This document shows positions 16,398 to 22,908 of a stretch of DNA of 64,000 nt, in pieces. A program made the translations under genes and the position numbers. The notes beneath the pieces are model-generated. The model was not told the DNA's origin. It did no database searches and saw only the letters and a program-made list of their open reading frames with translations. The DNA lies in the NCBI GenBank assembly GCA_016208975.1, contig JACQXA010000002.1, positions 74,848-138,847 of the forward strand. The letters run 5' to 3'. Source of the stretch: Nitrospinota bacterium (lineage in GTDB: Bacteria; Nitrospinota_A; UBA7883; JACRLM01). Position 1 is the stretch's first letter, and each line of letters opens with the position of its first letter.

Positions 16398-17885
16398 CTA
16401 CACCGCCAGGCCCTCTTCCAGCATTTTTTCCAGATGGTTTATAAGCTCTTTGGCCGTCATGTTCCCGTAAGGCGCTATCAACGCCTTCTCCGGCCCCGCC
16501 TTCAGTACCGCCAGCGCGGACAGGCGCATTTTTCGCGCCCGGTCAAAATCGTTTTCATTTTCGTGGATGGCCGCCATGTCCATATACGCCGGGATATATT
16601 TCGGCGCCAGGTATATTACTTTATTAAGCTCCTCTTTGGCTTTCGCGCGATCCCCGTTTTCCTCGGCGATGTTCGCCAGCAGATAATGGGGCTCCACGGA
16701 GTTCCAGTCCGCCGCCACGGCCCTTTCCAGATAAGCGGCCGCTGTTTTATGGTCGCCGGTGTTGGCCATGGCCCGGGCGGCGTAACAAAGGGCTTTTACC
16801 GATCCCGGCGCGTCCCGCAGGATATTCTCCGCTTTCGCCGCCGCTTCCTGGTAACGGCCCTGTTCCAGCGCGGCTTCCAGTCCTTTAAACGGGTCTTGCG
16901 GGGATTCCGGCTCTGGAGCCGGATCTTCATTCCCTGCGGGCGGAACATACCTGACCGGCGCTGAGATAATATGCGGCTCCGGTATTTGTATGAAGTTTTG
17001 GAATACAGGCTCCCCGCGGGTTTTAGGCGCCACCAATGCCATGGATGGTTGGGCCTGGCCGGATGTTTTCTGGTAAACCACCGATTCCGGATATACCTTG
17101 TGGCTCAAGCCCTCAACCGGCGTGGAGAACAACTCGCCATGGCCCGTTATCAGATAACCGCCATCGCCAAGGGCGGCGGAGAGTTTATTTACGATGGCCG
17201 TCACGAAGTTCCGCTCGTAGTACAAGAGAAGGTTGCGGCACAGGATAAGGTCCATCCCTTCCGGGTAATCCGCGCCAGCCAGGTCTGCCGCGCGGAACGT
17301 GACCATTTTCCTTATATGGCCGCGTAGCTCCCATTGCCTTTCATTTAGCTTCTTGAAATATTTATTCCGGCCATCTTTGGAAATCGAGCGGAAAGACCAT
17401 TCCCCGAATATCCCGCCCCGGGCTTTCGCCAAAAAATCCTCCCTCACGTCGGAGCCAAGGATCATCGCTTCCCACCCGGAATTTTTGGGTATCAGCTCAT
17501 CCAACACCATGGCCAGCGAATACGGCTCCTCACCGGTGGCGCAACCGGCGCTCCATATCCTCAGGGTTTTATCTTCACCGCGCCGTTTTATAATTTCGGG
17601 CAATATCACGCTCCGGATAAGGGCGAACTGGCCCCGGTCCCTGAAGAAATATGTTTCCCCCACGGTGAAATGCGCGGCCAGCTCGTGGCGCTCCAGCTGG
17701 CCTTGCTCCGTGTCTGAATCCACCAGCTGGTAGTATTCTTCCGGCGAGCGTGATTTGCCGGACTTTATCCGGGTGAGGATGGCGGAGCGCAGGATGTTTT
17801 CGTCGCCCGGGCGCGGGCGCAACCCTATTTTGACCGATACAAGCTCCCCGAAGGCGCGCAGGAGCTTTTCATCAATATCCGGCAT
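16398..17885 (-). CDS. cheR: CheR methyltransferase with C-terminal TPR (WspC-like)
   Basis: TVGETYFFRD, IWSAGCATGEEPYS, DLILCRNLL; TPR helices at the C-terminus. Confidence 0.92.
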   Translation of the reverse strand: MPDIDEKLLRAFGELVSVKIGLRPRPGDENILRSAILTRIKSGKSRSPEEYYQLVDSDTEQGQLERHELAAHFTVGETYFFRDRGQFALIRSVILPEIIKRRGEDKTLRIWSAGCATGEEPYSLAMVLDELIPKNSGWEAMILGSDVREDFLAKARGGIFGEWSFRSISKDGRNKYFKKLNERQWELRGHIRKMVTFRAADLAGADYPEGMDLILCRNLLLYYERNFVTAIVNKLSAALGDGGYLITGHGELFSTPVEGLSHKVYPESVVYQKTSGQAQPSMALVAPKTRGEPVFQNFIQIPEPHIISAPVRYVPPAGNEDPAPEPESPQDPFKGLEAALEQGRYQEAAAKAENILRDAPGSVKALCYAARAMANTGDHKTAAAYLERAVAADWNSVEPHYLLANIAEENGDRAKAKEELNKVIYLAPKYIPAYMDMAAIHENENDFDRARKMRLSALAVLKAGPEKALIAPYGNMTAKELINHLEKMLEEGLAV

Positions 17886-17963
17886 TACCAGGCGCCGAGT
17901 ATGTTTTTACTTCCCTTATATTACGCCCAAACCGTTTTACGGGCCAGAAGGGAGAAAAGAGGT

Positions 17964-18677
17964 TTAATAACGGGTGGTAATGTCTGTAAGCCAAGCTGGC
18001 GACGCATTAGTCAGAATGCTTTCAATATGTTTATCGGCTCCGGATAACACGGCCACTCCGGTGGCAAGTAGCGTAATGCCCAACGCGGGTTTTAGCGTTC
18101 CTCCAGCGGAAGCAAGTTTGTTACGCAACCCAATCGCATAACGCCCCGCGTATGAAAGGAAAACAAGGGGAGTAACCGCGCCAAGGGCGAAAAATGCCAT
18201 CACGGCAGAGGCATTTATCAAGGATTCATGGCTCATGGCAAGCCCGATGGCCGCGCCGAGCGTGGGCCCGGCGCAAGGCGCCCATAGCGCCCCCAATAAA
18301 ACCCCAAGCGCAACCTGCCCCCCAATTCCGCTGGCGTTGAATGCGCCCGCATAGTTTTTCACACCAGCCAGCAACGGCTCGGCCATCTTCATAAACCTTA
18401 AATGCATTGCGCCGGCCAGCATGAAAGCTCCAGCCAGAAACAGAATGGCCGCCGCTCCTGCCCTGATTGTTCCCTGGCCGATTCCAATCAACTGGCCAGC
18501 GACCGGCAAAACCATTCCCATGGCTGTAAAAGAGATTACCAGACCACCCATCACCGCCAAGGGGCCAAGCCTGCCCTCTCGCATGGCCCCGGCCAATATC
18601 ACTGGAGCCAGCGGTAACACGCATGGCGACAGTATTGACAAAACGCCAGCCGCATATCCGAGAATTATGGAAAGCAT
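17964..18677 (-). CDS. ccdA: CcdA/DsbD-transmembrane-domain thiol transfer protein
   Basis: LSPCVLPL and WAPCAGPTL conserved cysteines; about 6 TM; ATG overlaps the upstream TGA. Confidence 0.88.
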   Translation of the reverse strand: MLSIILGYAAGVLSILSPCVLPLAPVILAGAMREGRLGPLAVMGGLVISFTAMGMVLPVAGQLIGIGQGTIRAGAAAILFLAGAFMLAGAMHLRFMKMAEPLLAGVKNYAGAFNASGIGGQVALGVLLGALWAPCAGPTLGAAIGLAMSHESLINASAVMAFFALGAVTPLVFLSYAGRYAIGLRNKLASAGGTLKPALGITLLATGVAVLSGADKHIESILTNASPAWLTDITTRY

Positions 18678-19084
18678 CAAATTCCCTTTTCAAACAGCGC
18701 GCGGATTTTCCCCGGATCCGTTTCACCCACGGAACGCCCCGCTTCCTTGTTCCCCTTAAACACTATCAGGGTGCTTTGATACGATATTTTCAGAAGTTTT
18801 AAGGCCTCCTTATCCGTGTCAAAGTTGACCTTGAACACAATTGCGGTGGCGAACTTGCCGTCTTTCGAAAGATTTTCGATTACAGGCTCCTGTTTTTTGC
18901 AGGTTGGGCACCAATCGGCATGGGCGCCCACAATGATTGTAACGCCGCTTTTTTGGGCCTCAGCGAATTTTTTGCCGTCGAATGGCATTATCTCCGCCGC
19001 GCCCGCTGTTTGGCCGGCCGATATTGAAAGCGCCACCATAAGGGGGACGGCCCTGGCAAAAAACCTCAATGAACCTCTTCCCAT
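18677..19084 (-). CDS. Exported thioredoxin-family protein
   Basis: Signal peptide-like N-terminus; WCPTC active site; GGAGG RBS before ATG 19084. Confidence 0.88.
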   Translation of the reverse strand: MGRGSLRFFARAVPLMVALSISAGQTAGAAEIMPFDGKKFAEAQKSGVTIIVGAHADWCPTCKKQEPVIENLSKDGKFATAIVFKVNFDTDKEALKLLKISYQSTLIVFKGNKEAGRSVGETDPGKIRALFEKGI

Positions 19085-19110
19085 TTGTTCCCTCCGCATA
19101 ATCAGTAGCG

Positions 19111-19233
19111 TTATACAAAACTCCATCCAATAAAGGCCACAATGGCAAGCCCTGCCATCACCAGCATCGCCTTCTCATGCTTGCATAGGCCTTTTTTGGC
19201 CTTGCACCCTTCCATATTGCACATAATAGACAT
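19111..19233 (-). CDS. Small Cys-rich membrane peptide (40 aa), absent from the ORF track
   Basis: MSIMCNMEGCKAKKGLCKHEKAMLVMAGLAIVAFIGWSFV; GAGG RBS about 10 nt upstream; collinear with trx-ccdA. Confidence 0.6.
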   Translation of the reverse strand: MSIMCNMEGCKAKKGLCKHEKAMLVMAGLAIVAFIGWSFV

Positions 19234-19347
19234 GGGTCATCCGCCTCTATAATTGGGATTATTTAATCCATTCCTGGTTGAGCCTTATATAGGCTCTTAT
19301 AGTTTAGTGATAACAGGTGGATGAATATTACAAACGGCTAGCGGCCA

Positions 19348-20490
19348 TTACTGAAGCTCTATGGACCCGCTCCACAATTTGTAGGACGATTTGCCTGTTT
19401 CCGTAAGGGCTTGTGATATGAGCCCCATTGTCGGAGCGCTGGCGTTTTCCACCGTGGATTTGAAAAACCCATGGTAGAAATAATCCGGATACACCGATAT
19501 TGAAAATACAATCCGCGATGCGGAGCCAATATGGCCGTCGTATATGTATTCCCTTTTTTCCCCTGGCGCCAGACGGGTGTCATATTCCTCCACGCTGATG
19601 TCCAGGCTCACCTTGCGCCCAATCTTATATTCCCTTTCGGATCCTGGGATCGTTTTCCCGGAAGAATCCTCCAAATGAGCCCTGATAATCACCAGCGGGG
19701 TTACATAAGTTGGGAAATAATGCCCCGCGCCGGAGTTTGTAACCGCAAGCGCCGCCTTTTTCCCATCCCACACCTGTTGTATATCCAGGGCGCTTAAAGT
19801 CATCCGCTTATCGTGAATCCCCTTAAAAAGATGCTCCCTGTTTGGCATATGGCAATTCTGGCACTGGACGCCATCCTTAGCCCAATTGCTTTTTTGCCAT
19901 TCCGCGTAGGTATTAACAAGCAATTTGCCGTTTAGTTTATAACCATCATTCAGCTGGTGACACGCGGCGCAGAATTCCGATTTCCCGTAAAAATCCCGGG
20001 CGTAATAACCATTGTGGCCTCGCAAATCACTTTGCGCGGTTTCCAGTTTCCCATTTCGCGGCGGCCCGTAAACTTTTCCGTATCGCACATGGCATACGGC
20101 GCAACTGACGCCTGCATGTTTAAGGCGCCCATCATAGCCCCGGTTTGGCGCATAACCCCCGCCGCTTGCGCTTTTGAACTCTTGTTGCTCCGCCAGCGGA
20201 GCGTGGCAGAAATAGCATGAATTGGCGGTGTCCGGCTGGTTTTCGGGATCGAGTTGACCAAGAAGCCCCGGACCTGCGGCCCTTGCGTGTAATGACTCTT
20301 TCCAGGGGTCAAGCTGGGCCATATGGCAAGAGCCGCAGTCTTCCGGGTAAAGCGAATATATACTTGCCCCGCCACGAGCCGGGCGGCGCCAGTGGGAGTT
20401 AAGGGAAGAGCCCCCCTCCGCCGAAAAAGGAAGGGAGCCCCCTATACCCGCAAATAAGACGAGTGGAACAATCCAGCCTATTTTGCGCAA
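19348..20490 (-). CDS. Pentaheme cytochrome c (c554/c552-like domain plus C-terminal beta domain)
   Basis: Five CxxCH motifs: CGSCH, CYFCH, CAVCH, CAACH, CQNCH; signal/anchor RKIGWIVPLVLFAG; TTG start at 20490 is inferred. Confidence 0.85.
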   Translation of the reverse strand: MRKIGWIVPLVLFAGIGGSLPFSAEGGSSLNSHWRRPARGGASIYSLYPEDCGSCHMAQLDPWKESLHARAAGPGLLGQLDPENQPDTANSCYFCHAPLAEQQEFKSASGGGYAPNRGYDGRLKHAGVSCAVCHVRYGKVYGPPRNGKLETAQSDLRGHNGYYARDFYGKSEFCAACHQLNDGYKLNGKLLVNTYAEWQKSNWAKDGVQCQNCHMPNREHLFKGIHDKRMTLSALDIQQVWDGKKAALAVTNSGAGHYFPTYVTPLVIIRAHLEDSSGKTIPGSEREYKIGRKVSLDISVEEYDTRLAPGEKREYIYDGHIGSASRIVFSISVYPDYFYHGFFKSTVENASAPTMGLISQALTETGKSSYKLWSGSIELQ

Positions 20491-20735
20491 GGATTCTTGG
20501 CGCAGGGATTCTTGGCGCACGGGTTCTTGTCTCCCTGCTTTTTGTCACTGCTTTTCTTCTTTTTAGTGTCGCAAGGATTTGCCGCGCAGGGATTCTTTGT
20601 CTTGTTCGCGTCAGCCGCCGCGCAAGGATTCTTGGCGCAGGGGTTTTTATCCGCGGCCATGGCCGGAGACACACCGGCGAACCCAATTCCCGTGGCGATT
20701 ACCGTAGCAATAAGCAATTTCGTGATCTTCGTCAT
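20478..20735 (-). CDS. Secreted NPC-repeat peptide (7 x NPC)
   Basis: Sec signal ending AMA; KNPCA repeats from about 15-bp tandem DNA units; GGGGG RBS-like tract. Confidence 0.8.
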   Translation of the reverse strand: MTKITKLLIATVIATGIGFAGVSPAMAADKNPCAKNPCAAADANKTKNPCAANPCDTKKKKSSDKKQGDKNPCAKNPCAKNPCAK

Positions 20736-20809
20736 AACAAGTCCCCCTTTTTTGGATTGATTGACAAGTGAATAACACTACAACCTGATTCCCTCCAGGT
20801 CATCGCGCC

Positions 20810-21280
20810 TCAGCGCCTTTTGTAAGAAGCCGTATATTCCCGGTAATACGCCGCCATTGCCGTCATTTCCACCGAGTTGGGATCTAACGGGTTTGCGGCC
20901 ATGGGATTTAACATGCAATAGTTGACCATCTGGTCAAGCGTCAGAATGTCCCCAGTCATTTTTACGTGGTGCGGCCACCCTTTAACCTTGTCGAGGTTCA
21001 GGTTCTCATGGTCCGCATGGCATGACATGCACGATAGGCCGCTGGTCCCCAGTGCTTCGGAGTTCCAAAGCTTCTTCCCCATGGACACGAGCTTTTCGTA
21101 ATCCGTGATCCTCTCCAGTCGAATGTGTTTCCTGTCATCCGATGACACCGCGGCTGGGGCGCATGGGTTGGGGGCGCTTCTTGAAGCGCCGCAGGGATTC
21201 TTGTTTTCTGCGGCCGCATTATTAGCGGCCCCGATACAAGCCGCCACTGTAATCAGGATTACCGTCAACGTTTTTACCAT
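20810..21280 (-). CDS. Monoheme cytochrome c, SoxA/TsdA-like (probable His/Cys ligation), with N-terminal NPC repeats
   Basis: Signal peptide; KNPC and PNPC; CMSCH; QMVNYCMLNPM resembles the SoxA/TsdA distal-Cys segment. Confidence 0.75.
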   Translation of the reverse strand: MVKTLTVILITVAACIGAANNAAAENKNPCGASRSAPNPCAPAAVSSDDRKHIRLERITDYEKLVSMGKKLWNSEALGTSGLSCMSCHADHENLNLDKVKGWPHHVKMTGDILTLDQMVNYCMLNPMAANPLDPNSVEMTAMAAYYREYTASYKRR

Positions 21281-21504
21281 TCCCGCCTCGTGTCTATAAT
21301 GTGGTGGTTATCTGAATAACCGGCATTGATAACGCCGGGCAGGCTCGGATGCCCTTTATGCGCGCCTTCCGGCGTAATCCCCGGCCTTCAGCGTCATCTT
21401 TATTGCCCCATATCCTTTTAACTCAAAGAATAATTTATTATACGCATTATGAGGTTTTGTCAATTCATTCACCCAAAATGCGCCACGGCCCTCTTTTTGG
21501 CGTT

Positions 21505-21744
21505 TCACGTTTTCCCTAACAGCCTGGCGATAATCCTGTCCTCCAGGCTTTTGCTTTCCGCGTCCGTGAGGGATGGCCCGTCAGAGAAATATTTCCTTAC
21601 GGCGCCGCGCAGGGCTCGCATGTGCCCCCAATATCTGGAACAGGGGCCGCACATGAAAAGATGCGCCATCTGTTTCAACTTACCCATATGGGAAAGCTCT
21701 TTCCCGGAGCCAAGGTTTTCGACAACTTCCTTGCACGACATCAT
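21505..21744 (-). CDS. Zinc-finger (zf-HC2/ZAS) anti-sigma factor
   Basis: MSCKEV...HLFMCGPC (Hx3Cx2C); directly follows the ECF gene. Confidence 0.85.
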   Translation of the reverse strand: MMSCKEVVENLGSGKELSHMGKLKQMAHLFMCGPCSRYWGHMRALRGAVRKYFSDGPSLTDAESKSLEDRIIARLLGKT

Positions 21745-21749
21745 GACTT

Positions 21750-22343
21750 TTAGCTCTTCCAGCCCGATTTTACCTCGAGGCACTCCCGCAACCTGTTTCG
21801 CGCCCTGTAAAGTAGCACTCCAAGATTAGTGACGGTAATCCCCAGGGTATTACAGATTTCTTCACTCTCCAGGTCGTCCACTTCCTTCAGCGTGAACGCG
21901 GCCCGCTGGGTTAATGGAAGCTTTTCGAGACACGCATGGAACTTTTCCGATGTCTCCGCGGCTAAAACAAATTCCTCGGGGCTGGCGGGCGGCCTCACCC
22001 AATGGCCCCGTAAATCGAACCTCGCCGCCACAACATCGTCCACGGGGTCGTGTTTCCGCAGTTTCGCCAGCTCCCGGCACTTCTCAAGCCCCTTCCTGTA
22101 AAGAATGGCGAATATAAACGTGCGGACGCTGGAACGCCCCTCAAAGGCGGGTACCTTCTCATAGAACGTGATCCAGGTGTCCTGAACCATTTCCTTGGCG
22201 GTTTCCGGGTCGAAACCCATCCCCACCGCCGCGTTATGCAAGTGCCTGGTGTAAGCCCGCACCAGCCGCTCAATGGAGGCCGCGTCTTGCGCCACCACTT
22301 TTTTAATGAACCCGGCCGAGCTTACATCCCACGCTTCCGCCAT
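21750..22343 (-). CDS. ECF sigma factor (TIGR02943/ECF13-like)
   Basis: FEGRSSVRT, FDLRGHW..P, EICNTLGI..NLGVLLYRARNRLRECLE. Confidence 0.88.
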   Translation of the reverse strand: MAEAWDVSSAGFIKKVVAQDAASIERLVRAYTRHLHNAAVGMGFDPETAKEMVQDTWITFYEKVPAFEGRSSVRTFIFAILYRKGLEKCRELAKLRKHDPVDDVVAARFDLRGHWVRPPASPEEFVLAAETSEKFHACLEKLPLTQRAAFTLKEVDDLESEEICNTLGITVTNLGVLLYRARNRLRECLEVKSGWKS

Positions 22344-22416
22344 GTCCCCCGTCACACATCCTCTTGGCATTTGCCGTTATGGCGCGCCCTATTTCTAATG
22401 AGAACGCCGCCTGTCC

Positions 22417-22908
22417 TTAAGACAACCCCGGCTCCAGCTTTCCGTTGAGGCCGATATATTTACCCGTCCGCAGATGCTTTTCCAGCCCGTCAACAACCTG
22501 GCCCAGCATCTTCCTCATCATCGGTCTCATCATCACCGGCCCCATGATCTTCCCGAATATCCCGCCTTTCATTTCGAAATGGACAGACAAGGTGAGCAGG
22601 GTCTTGCCCTGCCCCGCGTCCTTCAAATCGAAATGGACCACCCCCTCCTTTAGGGGCATGCTTCCGTCCCTTATTGCTACGGTCATGGATTCGCCCTCTT
22701 TCCATCCGGTCACCTCTTCATCCACATGCCCCTGGCCGTTATAGAACTCGCAAGTCCTCTTGGCGCCAACGCCGCATTTAACGGCGCTATGTAACGTGGA
22801 TTTCTCCACCATGGGGTGAAACACATGAACGTTGCCGAAATCGGAAAGCTTTTGCCACACTTCGCTCCGGGGCGCGTCCACCAGTTTCTCAAGCTTGAAC
22901 TCCGTCAT
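22417..22908 (-). CDS. SRPBCC/polyketide cyclase-like protein
   Basis: VDAPRSEVWQKLSDF...GVGAKRTC START-like pattern. Confidence 0.8.
   Translation of the reverse strand: MTEFKLEKLVDAPRSEVWQKLSDFGNVHVFHPMVEKSTLHSAVKCGVGAKRTCEFYNGQGHVDEEVTGWKEGESMTVAIRDGSMPLKEGVVHFDLKDAGQGKTLLTLSVHFEMKGGIFGKIMGPVMMRPMMRKMLGQVVDGLEKHLRTGKYIGLNGKLEPGLS

Follow-up and report, generated by a model that had tools for sequence, protein, structure and literature searches.

Exported NPC-repeat peptides linked to c-type cytochromes, with a tentative role as periplasmic thiol carriers

Here, we describe a small exported peptide made of NPC repeats that is encoded by a Nitrospinota bacterium (assembly GCA_016208975.1, contig JACQXA010000002.1, positions 74,848 to 138,847; this stretch of 64,000 nucleotides is referred to as the window, and positions are those of the window unless a contig is named), in an operon with two c-type cytochromes, an exported thioredoxin and a CcdA-type transporter. 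The 85 amino acid (aa) open reading frame (ORF) represents a true gene, whose product, a Sec-exported, strongly basic and intrinsically disordered peptide, belongs to an NPC-repeat module that is widespread among bacteria and for which, as far as we could find, no description exists. The peptide probably functions as a thiol carrier or substrate that is coupled both to the cytochromes and to thioredoxin and CcdA. As a best overall explanation, we tentatively propose a mobile periplasmic polythiol carrier working with haem proteins and thioredoxin/CcdA under the control of an extracytoplasmic function (ECF) sigma factor. Sulfur is a possible cargo, at a confidence that falls short of probable.

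The reality of the gene is supported by its ribosome-binding site and signal peptide (Table 1), by public gene calls (an identical 85-aa product on three contigs), by homologues of the same layout and by repeat units that differ only synonymously. Judged by eye, the signal peptide has a K-rich n-region, a hydrophobic core and an AMA/A cleavage site, and this N-terminal layout is common to 12 of 12 aligned homologues. The predicted mature part, ADKNPCAKNPCAAADANKTKNPCAANPCDTKKKKSSDKKQGDKNPCAKNPCAKNPCAK (58 aa), contains 14 K, 11 A, 8 N and 7 P, lacks H, F, W and Y altogether and has a net charge of approximately +9; each of its seven cysteines lies within an NPC motif. An initial annotation of this DNA had described a secreted peptide of about 58 mature residues with seven NPC motifs, many Lys and no His or aromatic residues, all of which is borne out. 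Its remark that the cysteines mostly follow a Cx4C spacing also holds (Cys-to-Cys distances of 5, 12, 5, 18, 5 and 5, i.e., four of six intervals), as does the statement that haem cannot be bound through CxxCH, given that the peptide has no His, no CxxC and hence no such motif. AlphaFold2 (AF2) modelled the peptide with a mean predicted local distance difference test (pLDDT) score of 47.5, values below 50 throughout the mature part and no strands or other secondary structure there, in agreement with the disorder that had been proposed. Two plus-strand ORFs across the gene (20463-20771 and 20497-20760) were discarded as artefacts of the repeat, as they have neither a signal peptide nor homologues.

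The seven NPC units are arranged in three blocks. Tandem Repeats Finder (TRF) reported a single array (20485-20529, period 15, 3.0 copies, 90% matches), and the remaining four lie in pairs, as two blocks with non-repeat spacers between them. Tandem units of about 15 bp, as first suggested, are therefore an accurate description of three of the seven units, but not of the four in the spacer-separated blocks. The seven NPC cores differ at synonymous third positions only (AAT/AAC; CCC/CCT/CCG), which indicates that the repeat has been maintained at the protein level, by selection on the peptide, and is not the product of fresh slippage. The number of NPC motifs nonetheless varies between orthologues (4, 5, 7, 8 and 9), with the motif retained, and to this extent the suggested expansion and contraction of the repeat is supported; at the population level, the contig assembled from each of four groundwater DNA runs was identical, a comparison in which rare length variants would be hidden. 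A degenerate pattern for NPCAxNPCA, AAYCCNTGYGCNNNNAAYCCNTGYGC, matched three times in the window and never in 100 shuffles, and in the 2.97-Mb, 4-contig genome it matched at this locus only. In two of the groundwater runs (X1 and X4), short low-depth contigs matched the repeat units only (20500-20528 and 20616-20645). One of them has a different C-terminus (...PANPCAKK, then a stop), which suggests that another organism in the same groundwater samples has an NPC peptide of its own.

Scanning one genome for each of approximately 185,000 species with the DNA pattern recovered at least 120 NPC loci, from Alpha-, Beta-, Gamma- and Zetaproteobacteria, Cyanobacteria, Nitrospinota, Gemmatimonadota, Myxococcota and others. 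A pattern search of this kind had been suggested in the initial annotation and proved productive, and the reversed pattern, used as a control, gave no matches in 33 genomes of the phylum. The scan was far more sensitive than protein searches: a word-indexed search returned four homologues, and an exhaustive phmmer search of 1.84 billion representatives returned 18 matches at E ≤ 0.001, a small number because composition correction penalises the low-complexity repeat. We define the module as a Sec signal peptide followed by at least three [A/K]-N-P-C-[A/G/S] motifs, mostly 5-6 residues apart, in an Ala/Lys-rich and aromatic-free context. The window peptide has this NPC[A/G]-repeat structure and aligns with 11 of the 41 distinct free peptides recovered, and its gene also shows the second defining property of the module, being flanked by genes for SoxA/TsdA-like and pentahaem cytochromes. 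Pfam and NCBIfam contain no model for the NPC motif, and a full-text literature search for the motif strings found no paper.

Architectures were counted in 97 loci, and neighbouring genes in 98 loci, among the matches listed. With ORFs counted only where they have at least three NPC[AGS] motifs, the 97 loci contained 113 ORFs, 46 of which encode free peptides of no more than 140 aa (range 60-140 aa). The most frequent fusion partner was a SoxA/TsdA-like cytochrome c domain, the same domain as in the window neighbour (27 ORFs), followed by cytochrome P460 (8), the YHS domain (7, all from cyanobacterial loci), other cytochrome c families (about 6), lineage-specific domains (5), DM13 (3), YceI (2) and a BLH/DUF442 phosphatase-like domain (1). 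These domain assignments were confirmed with Pfam, and about 41 of the 67 fused NPC proteins are haem proteins. Homologues are typically laid out as a signal peptide, an NPC block, a charged Lys/His-rich spacer, a second NPC block and a C-terminal K(K). Over the 41 distinct free peptides the motif reads A-[A/K]-N-P-C-A-A-[K/N] (N 91%, P 97%, A at +1 83%); the NPC residues are 91-100% conserved and the spacers vary freely. Their composition is dominated by A (29%), P (16%), C (15%), N (14%) and K (10%), with H at 0.3%. The number of cysteines is odd in 25 of the 41 and even in 16, and it is odd in the window peptide as well, so that the family does not appear to be built on obligatory internal disulfide pairs. 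The closest free-peptide homologue of the window peptide (52% identity; locus L001, on the contig of P0001) stands alone after a pentose-phosphate operon. The P0001 gene adjoins two short AhpC/TSA-type ORFs (103 and 98 aa) that resemble a single, split peroxiredoxin-like gene.

In the window, the genes follow one another on the minus strand in the order ECF sigma factor, anti-sigma factor, SoxA-like cytochrome, NPC peptide, pentahaem cytochrome, 40-aa protein, thioredoxin and CcdA (Table 1). The SoxA-like protein has a CMSCH haem motif, a putative axial Cys in VNYCM and two N-terminal NPC motifs of its own. It aligns to residues 57-138 of Rhodovulum SoxA (1H31), with CMSCH placed on CADCH (His80) and the VNYCM Cys on Cys114 of chain A. 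We take His80 and Cys114 to be the ligands of haem 1, with the numbering matched to our alignment, and a His/Cys-ligated haem is thus expected in the SoxA-like neighbour. The start of the pentahaem gene is ambiguous (GTG at 20520 or TTG at 20490); with either start it overlaps the 3' end of the peptide gene, making translational coupling of the two genes likely, and the same overlap is present in three orthologous clusters (G005, G004 and G003). On the minus strand at 20481-20520, the KNPCA-encoding DNA reads ESLRQESLR in the +2 frame without a stop, and we rejected the corresponding 5' extension of the pentahaem ORF, which merely represents that frame of the KNPCA units. The 40-aa protein combines Cx4Cx6CxH with one transmembrane helix; two further genomes of the phylum encode orthologues (45% and 60% identical) at this position of the operon, a conservation that marks it as a real gene. 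The thioredoxin is given a later start in the public gene call (135 aa). Its presence in the operon together with CcdA fits thiols that are redox-cycled.

Regulatory signals were less distinct. A scan for sigma-70 promoters and terminators gave nothing above shuffles, inspection by eye of the DNA upstream of sigma genes and NPC operons in four genomes revealed no shared ECF-type -35/-10 motif, and an Rfam scan of 17800-22600 returned nothing credible (top match, an RpsF leader at E 0.9). A perfect TTGACA and TATAAT pair with a 15-nt spacer lies at approximately 21439-21465 (-), within the 224-nt gap between the anti-sigma and SoxA-like genes, and would leave an untranslated leader of about 150 nt; the promoter scan did not count it owing to the short spacer. 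This pair may represent an internal promoter that is independent of the ECF sigma factor.

Table 1. Features of the NPC-peptide operon in the window
Feature	Position	Strand	Basis or detail
ECF sigma-70 factor, operon head	21750..22370	(-)	TIGR02937, 72.5 bits against a cut-off of 42.9
Short soluble anti-sigma factor with zinc-binding HxxxCxxC (HLFMCGPC)	21505..21783	(-)	NCBIfam anti-sigma family, 2.9e-06; orthologues
SoxA/TsdA-like monohaem cytochrome c, 156 aa	20810..21280	(-)	PF21342, 49.2 bits against a cut-off of 27
Shine-Dalgarno-like sequence AAGGGGGA	20742..20749	(-)	6 nt before the ATG; read from the minus-strand sequence
NPC-repeat peptide gene, 85 aa	20478..20735	(-)	ORF list and sequence; stop TAG at 20478-20480
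Sec signal peptide, residues 1-27, MTKITKLLIATVIATGIGFAGVSPAMA	20655..20735	(-)	By inspection; predicted cleavage AMA/AD
NPC block 1, two KNPCA units	20619..20648	(-)	Unit coordinates
NPC block 2, KNPCA and ANPCD	20568..20597	(-)	Unit coordinates
Lys-rich charged spacer TKKKKSSDKKQGD	20529..20567	(-)	From the sequence
NPC block 3, three tandem 15-bp KNPCA units	20484..20528	(-)	Unit coordinates and TRF
Pentahaem cytochrome c, 390 aa	19348..20520	(-)	Five CxxCH; T. tepidum c552 / ExtKL-MccSep fold family
40-aa Cys-containing single-helix microprotein MSIMCNMEGCKAKKGLCKHEKAMLVMAGLAIVAFIGWSFV	19111..19233	(-)	ORF and gene call
Exported thioredoxin, WCPTC	18677..19126	(-)	NCBIfam thioredoxin/DsbE-type matches; Pfam Thioredoxin
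CcdA/DsbD-type membrane thiol-electron transporter	17964..18680	(-)	Pfam DsbD_TM and DsbD_2

Much of this arrangement recurs in the phylum. The strict NPC pattern was found in 4 of its 33 genomes, and orthologous clusters appear when the pattern is relaxed. For example, G004 encodes sigma factor, anti-sigma factor, NPC peptide (four NPC motifs), pentahaem cytochrome, 40-aa protein, thioredoxin and CcdA in this order, and G003 encodes sigma factor, anti-sigma factor, NPC peptide (five) and pentahaem cytochrome, with the 40-aa protein and an NPC-tailed YceI protein on the divergent strand. Sigma and anti-sigma genes are followed in G027 by a SoxA-like protein (seven NPC motifs) and an NPC peptide (nine); G005 has a SoxA-like protein (six), an NPC peptide (eight) and the pentahaem cytochrome, and G028, G022 and G021 have an NPC-tailed SoxA-like protein and the pentahaem cytochrome. 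The YceI-domain protein of G003 (L148, 5793-6632 (+)) carries three NPC motifs in a C-terminal tail, and its gene comes after the 40-aa microprotein gene, divergent from the sigma/NPC operon. Different periplasmic proteins of one regulon may thus be tagged with NPC motifs. The pentahaem gene adjoins NPC genes in 8 of the 14 phylum genomes with a close orthologue, and six more distant orthologues (36-41% identity) lack a nearby NPC gene. The peptide and pentahaem genes alone are paired at L031 and L040 and in G004 and G003, three further phylum genomes and two Marinobacter loci have an ECF sigma gene in front of NPC genes, and thioredoxin and CcdA genes adjoin NPC-SoxA-like genes at L029 and L102.

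To characterize neighbours across the whole family, ORFs within 4 kb of NPC genes were clustered and named with Pfam and NCBIfam. The most frequent neighbour was DUF6969 (31 loci), followed by the pentahaem family of the window (14 loci, i.e., 13 besides the window), FGE-sulfatase-domain proteins (13), YeeE/YedE-type Sulf_transp transporters (9), DUF3179 (6), periplasmic two-domain rhodaneses (5), DUF302 (5), dihaem cytochromes c (5), cupredoxins (3), the same ECF sigma factor (3) and thioredoxin plus CcdA (3). Two typical operons run transporter, NPC peptide, DUF6969, rhodanese, and NPC peptide, NPC-SoxA-like protein, DUF6969, a protein of unknown function, DUF302, transporter, DUF3179. Other neighbour clusters reflect lineage synteny (e.g., a TRAP transporter and Usp in Thalassospira). 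The cytoplasmic protein DUF6969 (PF22308) contains a His-rich HxxxH...HGHFH segment and is the top NPC neighbour in Proteobacteria, where its gene lies mostly directly downstream (L009, L014, L035, L044, L082, L088, L099 and 24 other loci). A full-text search found no literature on DUF6969, NCBIfam gives it no name and the PDB contains no relative; either a modifying enzyme or a partner on the cytoplasmic side is conceivable.

The pentahaem cytochrome gene is tightly linked to the gene of the window peptide. A profile of ten family members (alignment A1), compared with the PDB, matched T. tepidum cytochrome c552 (5ZE8, 1.5e-15) and Geobacter MccSep (9WT9, 4.9e-14). MccSep is a multihaem selenoprotein that acts as a periplasmic polysulfide reductase and cleaves S-S bonds with a mobile nucleophile beside a haem. 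Cys239 ligates its haem 2, the nucleophile is Sec325 of a DGUP loop, and Cys239 and Sec/Cys325 are strictly conserved in its family (bioRxiv 10.1101/2025.11.18.688581). The pentahaem neighbour resembles MccSep in the number (five) and order of its CxxCH motifs and in a conserved loop following the haem domain. In contrast to MccSep, its family has Leu at the position of Cys239 (NGKLLxNTY) and an invariant Tyr at that of Sec325 (GHxFPTYxTP), and adjoins the NPC peptide instead. Membership of the MccSep family was rejected for the neighbour, since Cys239 and Sec/Cys325 are not retained. All five CxxCH motifs are invariant in A1, as are five extra His residues, enough for five bis-His haems, and there is no invariant non-haem Cys. 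From these alignments, the family appears to be a fold relative of MccSep and an uncharacterised, Cys/Sec-less branch of pentahaem cytochromes.

How these components might work together is suggested by the Sox system. The His/Cys haems of SoxAX and TsdA carry out thiosulfate chemistry, and SoxY, to which SoxXA attaches thiosulfate oxidatively at a cysteine in its flexible arm, is kept active by SoxS, a periplasmic thioredoxin-type oxidoreductase, and SoxV, a CcdA homologue (PMC10451225). By analogy, the thiolates of the NPC peptide, and the two NPC motifs on the SoxA-like cytochrome, would be oxidised or loaded at the His/Cys haem of that cytochrome, and electrons would pass onward through the tightly linked pentahaem cytochrome. 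Wrongly oxidised or mixed-disulfide forms would be reset by the exported thioredoxin, fed from the cytoplasm by CcdA, and the whole set would be switched on when the ECF sigma factor is released from its soluble zinc-type anti-sigma factor under thiol-reactive stress. The cargo might most readily be sulfane sulfur or thiosulfate, carried as a Cys persulfide or an S-thiosulfonate, with the neighbouring Lys residues lowering the thiol pKa and attracting anionic sulfur species. We infer that the cysteines are free and redox-cycled and that the cytochromes act on them, as well as what the cargo is. A sulfur cargo draws on the YeeE and rhodanese neighbours, the BLH/DUF442 fusion, the precedent of His/Cys haems, the kinship with MccSep and the sox genes of the host. 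The latter form a canonical cluster of soxX, soxY, soxZ, soxA (dihaem) and soxB in the same genome (G000:C4:~607,500-609,500; L140 and L142), which also carries a YeeE homologue, and the organism is therefore predicted to oxidise or otherwise handle thiosulfate. A second sulfur system beside Sox would probably be stress-related and not part of the main energy pathway. A third SoxA-like single-haem protein is encoded elsewhere in the genome (G000:C4:772691-772939; L143, a 151-aa ORF with CDMCH and MINWCI, without NPC motifs), and its gene adjoins a Tat-exported metallophosphoesterase and a MauG/peroxidase-like fragment.

The resemblance to Sox is thus one of parts: a flexible segment with a carrier Cys that is loaded by a SoxA-family His/Cys-haem cytochrome, and rescue from wrong disulfides by a thioredoxin-type protein fed by a CcdA homologue (PMC10451225), set beside the SoxA-like cytochrome, Cys peptide, thioredoxin and CcdA of the window operon. 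It does not extend to the carrier itself. The NPC peptide has no SoxY fold, GGCGG arm or SoxZ partner, and seven cysteines where SoxY has one; identity with SoxY (PF13501) was rejected, as the peptide has no Pfam or NCBIfam SoxY match and the true SoxY (95.5 bits) lies in the separate soxXYZAB cluster. SoxB and SoxCD are also absent from the window operon, and the cytochrome there is a single domain like the haem-1 part of SoxA.

Several observations weigh against the proposed sulfur-loaded carrier. The SoxA-like domain matches the N-terminal haem-1 domain of SoxA and not the catalytic haem-2 domain, so that homology predicts His/Cys ligation but not catalysis. A complete Sox system with its own SoxY is already present, and a second thiosulfate carrier is not obviously needed. 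The cytoplasmic, zinc-type anti-sigma factor suggests a stress response as opposed to an energy-yielding pathway. No YeeE, rhodanese or DUF6969 gene adjoins the window operon, and DUF6969 was undetected anywhere in the phylum, in a search whose controls were equally silent. The fusions of NPC arrays to YHS, DM13 and YceI domains, together with the cupredoxin neighbours, fit a metal or general redox role as well. Moreover, the cysteines could simply be oxidised in a periplasm that contains DsbA, and no RNA runs containing the locus were found.

The genomic context fits a thiol or sulfur carrier with coupling to haem proteins better than it fits a metal chelator. A soft-metal or metalloid chelator or chaperone (for Cu(I), Hg, Cd, As(III) or selenite), with thioredoxin and CcdA keeping metallothionein-like thiolates reduced, is unlikely, although it is not without points in its favour. 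Richness in Cys and Lys is a trait of metallothioneins too, a zinc-type anti-sigma factor could sense thiophilic metals, and the YHS fusions of the cyanobacterial loci and the cupredoxin and FGE-like neighbours point in the same direction, while the YedE- and ExtH-type neighbours are linked to selenium as well. A relative of the peptide also gave a weak compositional match to a eukaryotic metallothionein. The peptide itself matched CopL (NF033807) at 18.5 bits (E 0.0024); this lies far under the cut-off of 40 bits, and the identity was rejected as a compositional match. Against a chelator stands the dominance of haem proteins among the partners, and no CopA, Cus, Czc, Mer, Ars or RND metal-efflux genes were among the recurrent neighbours of the 98 loci. 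Metallothioneins (including SmtA/BmtA) share with the peptide their small size, Cys- and Lys-rich and aromatic-free composition and little structure without a ligand; the NPC peptide, however, is exported to the periplasm and is encoded with haem and thiol-redox partners instead of metal-homeostasis genes. With cysteines at 12% in Cx4C spacing, no CxC, CC or CxxC clusters, no His and no Pfam match at E ≤ 0.01, it differs from known metallothioneins, and this identity was rejected. A recyclable, sacrificial thiol buffer against envelope oxidants and electrophiles (HOCl and chloramines, reactive nitrogen species, peroxides) is somewhat less likely still. An ECF sigma factor with a short soluble HxxxCxxC anti-sigma factor is an RsrA-type architecture, and thioredoxin and CcdA within the operon, the AhpC/TSA-type genes beside P0001 and the fusions to cytochrome P460, an NH2OH/NO-handling haem protein that would suit S-nitrosation chemistry, are all in keeping with such a buffer; it nonetheless leaves unexplained both the tight coupling to the pentahaem cytochrome and His/Cys haem domain and the YeeE and rhodanese operons, and Msr and peroxidase genes are not recurrent neighbours. 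The initial annotation had read the peptide as a polythiol and offered redox buffer, metal chelator and persulfide carrier without choosing among them. Odd Cys counts and the thioredoxin and CcdA genes of the operon support the polythiol part, and among the three functions the context leans toward a thiol or sulfur carrier.

The fusion counts and the overlap of the peptide and pentahaem ORFs could instead reflect a role directed at haem, with NPC thiolates serving as exchangeable axial ligands or in-trans nucleophiles, or as an aid in cytochrome maturation. The replacement of Cys239 and Sec325 of MccSep by Leu and Tyr would leave room for such a ligand or nucleophile, but the argument comes from alignments only, the five invariant extra His already suffice for all haems of the pentahaem family, and NPC arrays are also found on the non-haem YHS, DM13, YceI and BLH domains; we regard this role as improbable. 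The chance seems slight that the arrays lack chemistry of their own and act as an inert spacer or tether of low complexity, or as a structural element stapled by disulfides. Many periplasmic domains that are unrelated to one another do carry them at the N- or C-terminus, in the manner of linkers, and the AF2 model shows disorder. The free peptides, though, have nothing to link, the conservation of N, P and C contrasts with freely varying spacers, the units differ synonymously only, Cys counts are often odd and the gene is kept beside redox partners across phyla. Slighter again is the chance that the peptide is the precursor of a ribosomally made, post-translationally modified peptide (RiPP) of bufferin, oxazolin or 'CxxxxC' type, with cysteines converted (e.g., to thiooxazoles) before Sec export to yield a metallophore. 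A Sec signal with Cx4C repeats recalls the signal-peptide-bearing MNIO precursors, including the 'CxxxxC' family (PMC12452194), and DUF6969, in 31 of 98 loci (Proteobacteria), could be a modifying enzyme. Bufferins and related MNIO precursors (Buf1/DUF2282, Buf2, Buf_EGKCG/oxazolins, 'CxxxxC') are likewise small peptides that are exported by Sec and contain repeated cysteines; some are known as fusions to cytochrome c or FGE-sulfatase domains, and some are under sigma/anti-sigma control (PMC11626156, PMC12452194). The window peptide shares the signal peptide and Cys core, but its motif is NPC[A/G] and not EGKCG, and its partners are cytochromes and thioredoxin/CcdA, with no MNIO (DUF692, PF05114) or DUF2063 partner. 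Indeed, the genome, which is 100% complete, has no MNIO gene (a Caulobacter control was positive), and MNIO, DUF2063 and DoxX are not among the recurrent neighbours of the 98 loci. The silence of DUF6969 in the phylum, subject to the equally silent controls of that search, also tells against a RiPP, as does the fact that all other genes of the window operon are otherwise accounted for; fusion to folded enzymes is, moreover, unlike leader-core RiPPs.

Pentapeptide-repeat proteins are built from A(D/N)LXX repeats that form a right-handed quadrilateral beta-helix. This structure was rejected for the NPC peptide, which has no Pfam pentapeptide match and no strands in the AF2 model. Overall, the peptide is closest in kind to the known periplasmic cysteine carriers, which bear their cysteines on folded proteins (SoxY, DsbC/G, Sud).

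To our knowledge, the periplasm of most bacteria has no small-molecule thiol pool of its own. One speculative extension of the carrier proposal, which we consider rather doubtful, is that the NPC peptide acts as a diffusible, gene-encoded periplasmic thiol cofactor, a peptide counterpart of glutathione that would provide the Cys/Sec-less pentahaem cytochrome and the His/Cys haems with a nucleophilic Cys in trans. If so, a thiol/disulfide or persulfide couple would be wired directly into the c-type cytochrome chain, the NPC tails on P460, SoxA-like, YHS and DM13 proteins would correspond to this cofactor in tethered form, and the family would be a protein-based redox or sulfur carrier of a new class, present across many bacterial phyla. 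The peptide is short enough for chemical synthesis, which makes persulfide or thiosulfonate loading, metal binding, oxidant scavenging and haem ligation directly testable. Its study could also help to explain the single-domain SoxA-like cytochromes with His/Cys haems, the Cys-less pentahaem family and DUF6969. Provided that conservation, haem-enzyme fusions and linkage to thioredoxin/CcdA, YeeE and rhodanese hold together, a disordered polythiol peptide whose conservation reaches from Nitrospinota-like bacteria of groundwater to cyanobacteria and marine Proteobacteria would be a new component of envelope redox and sulfur biology.

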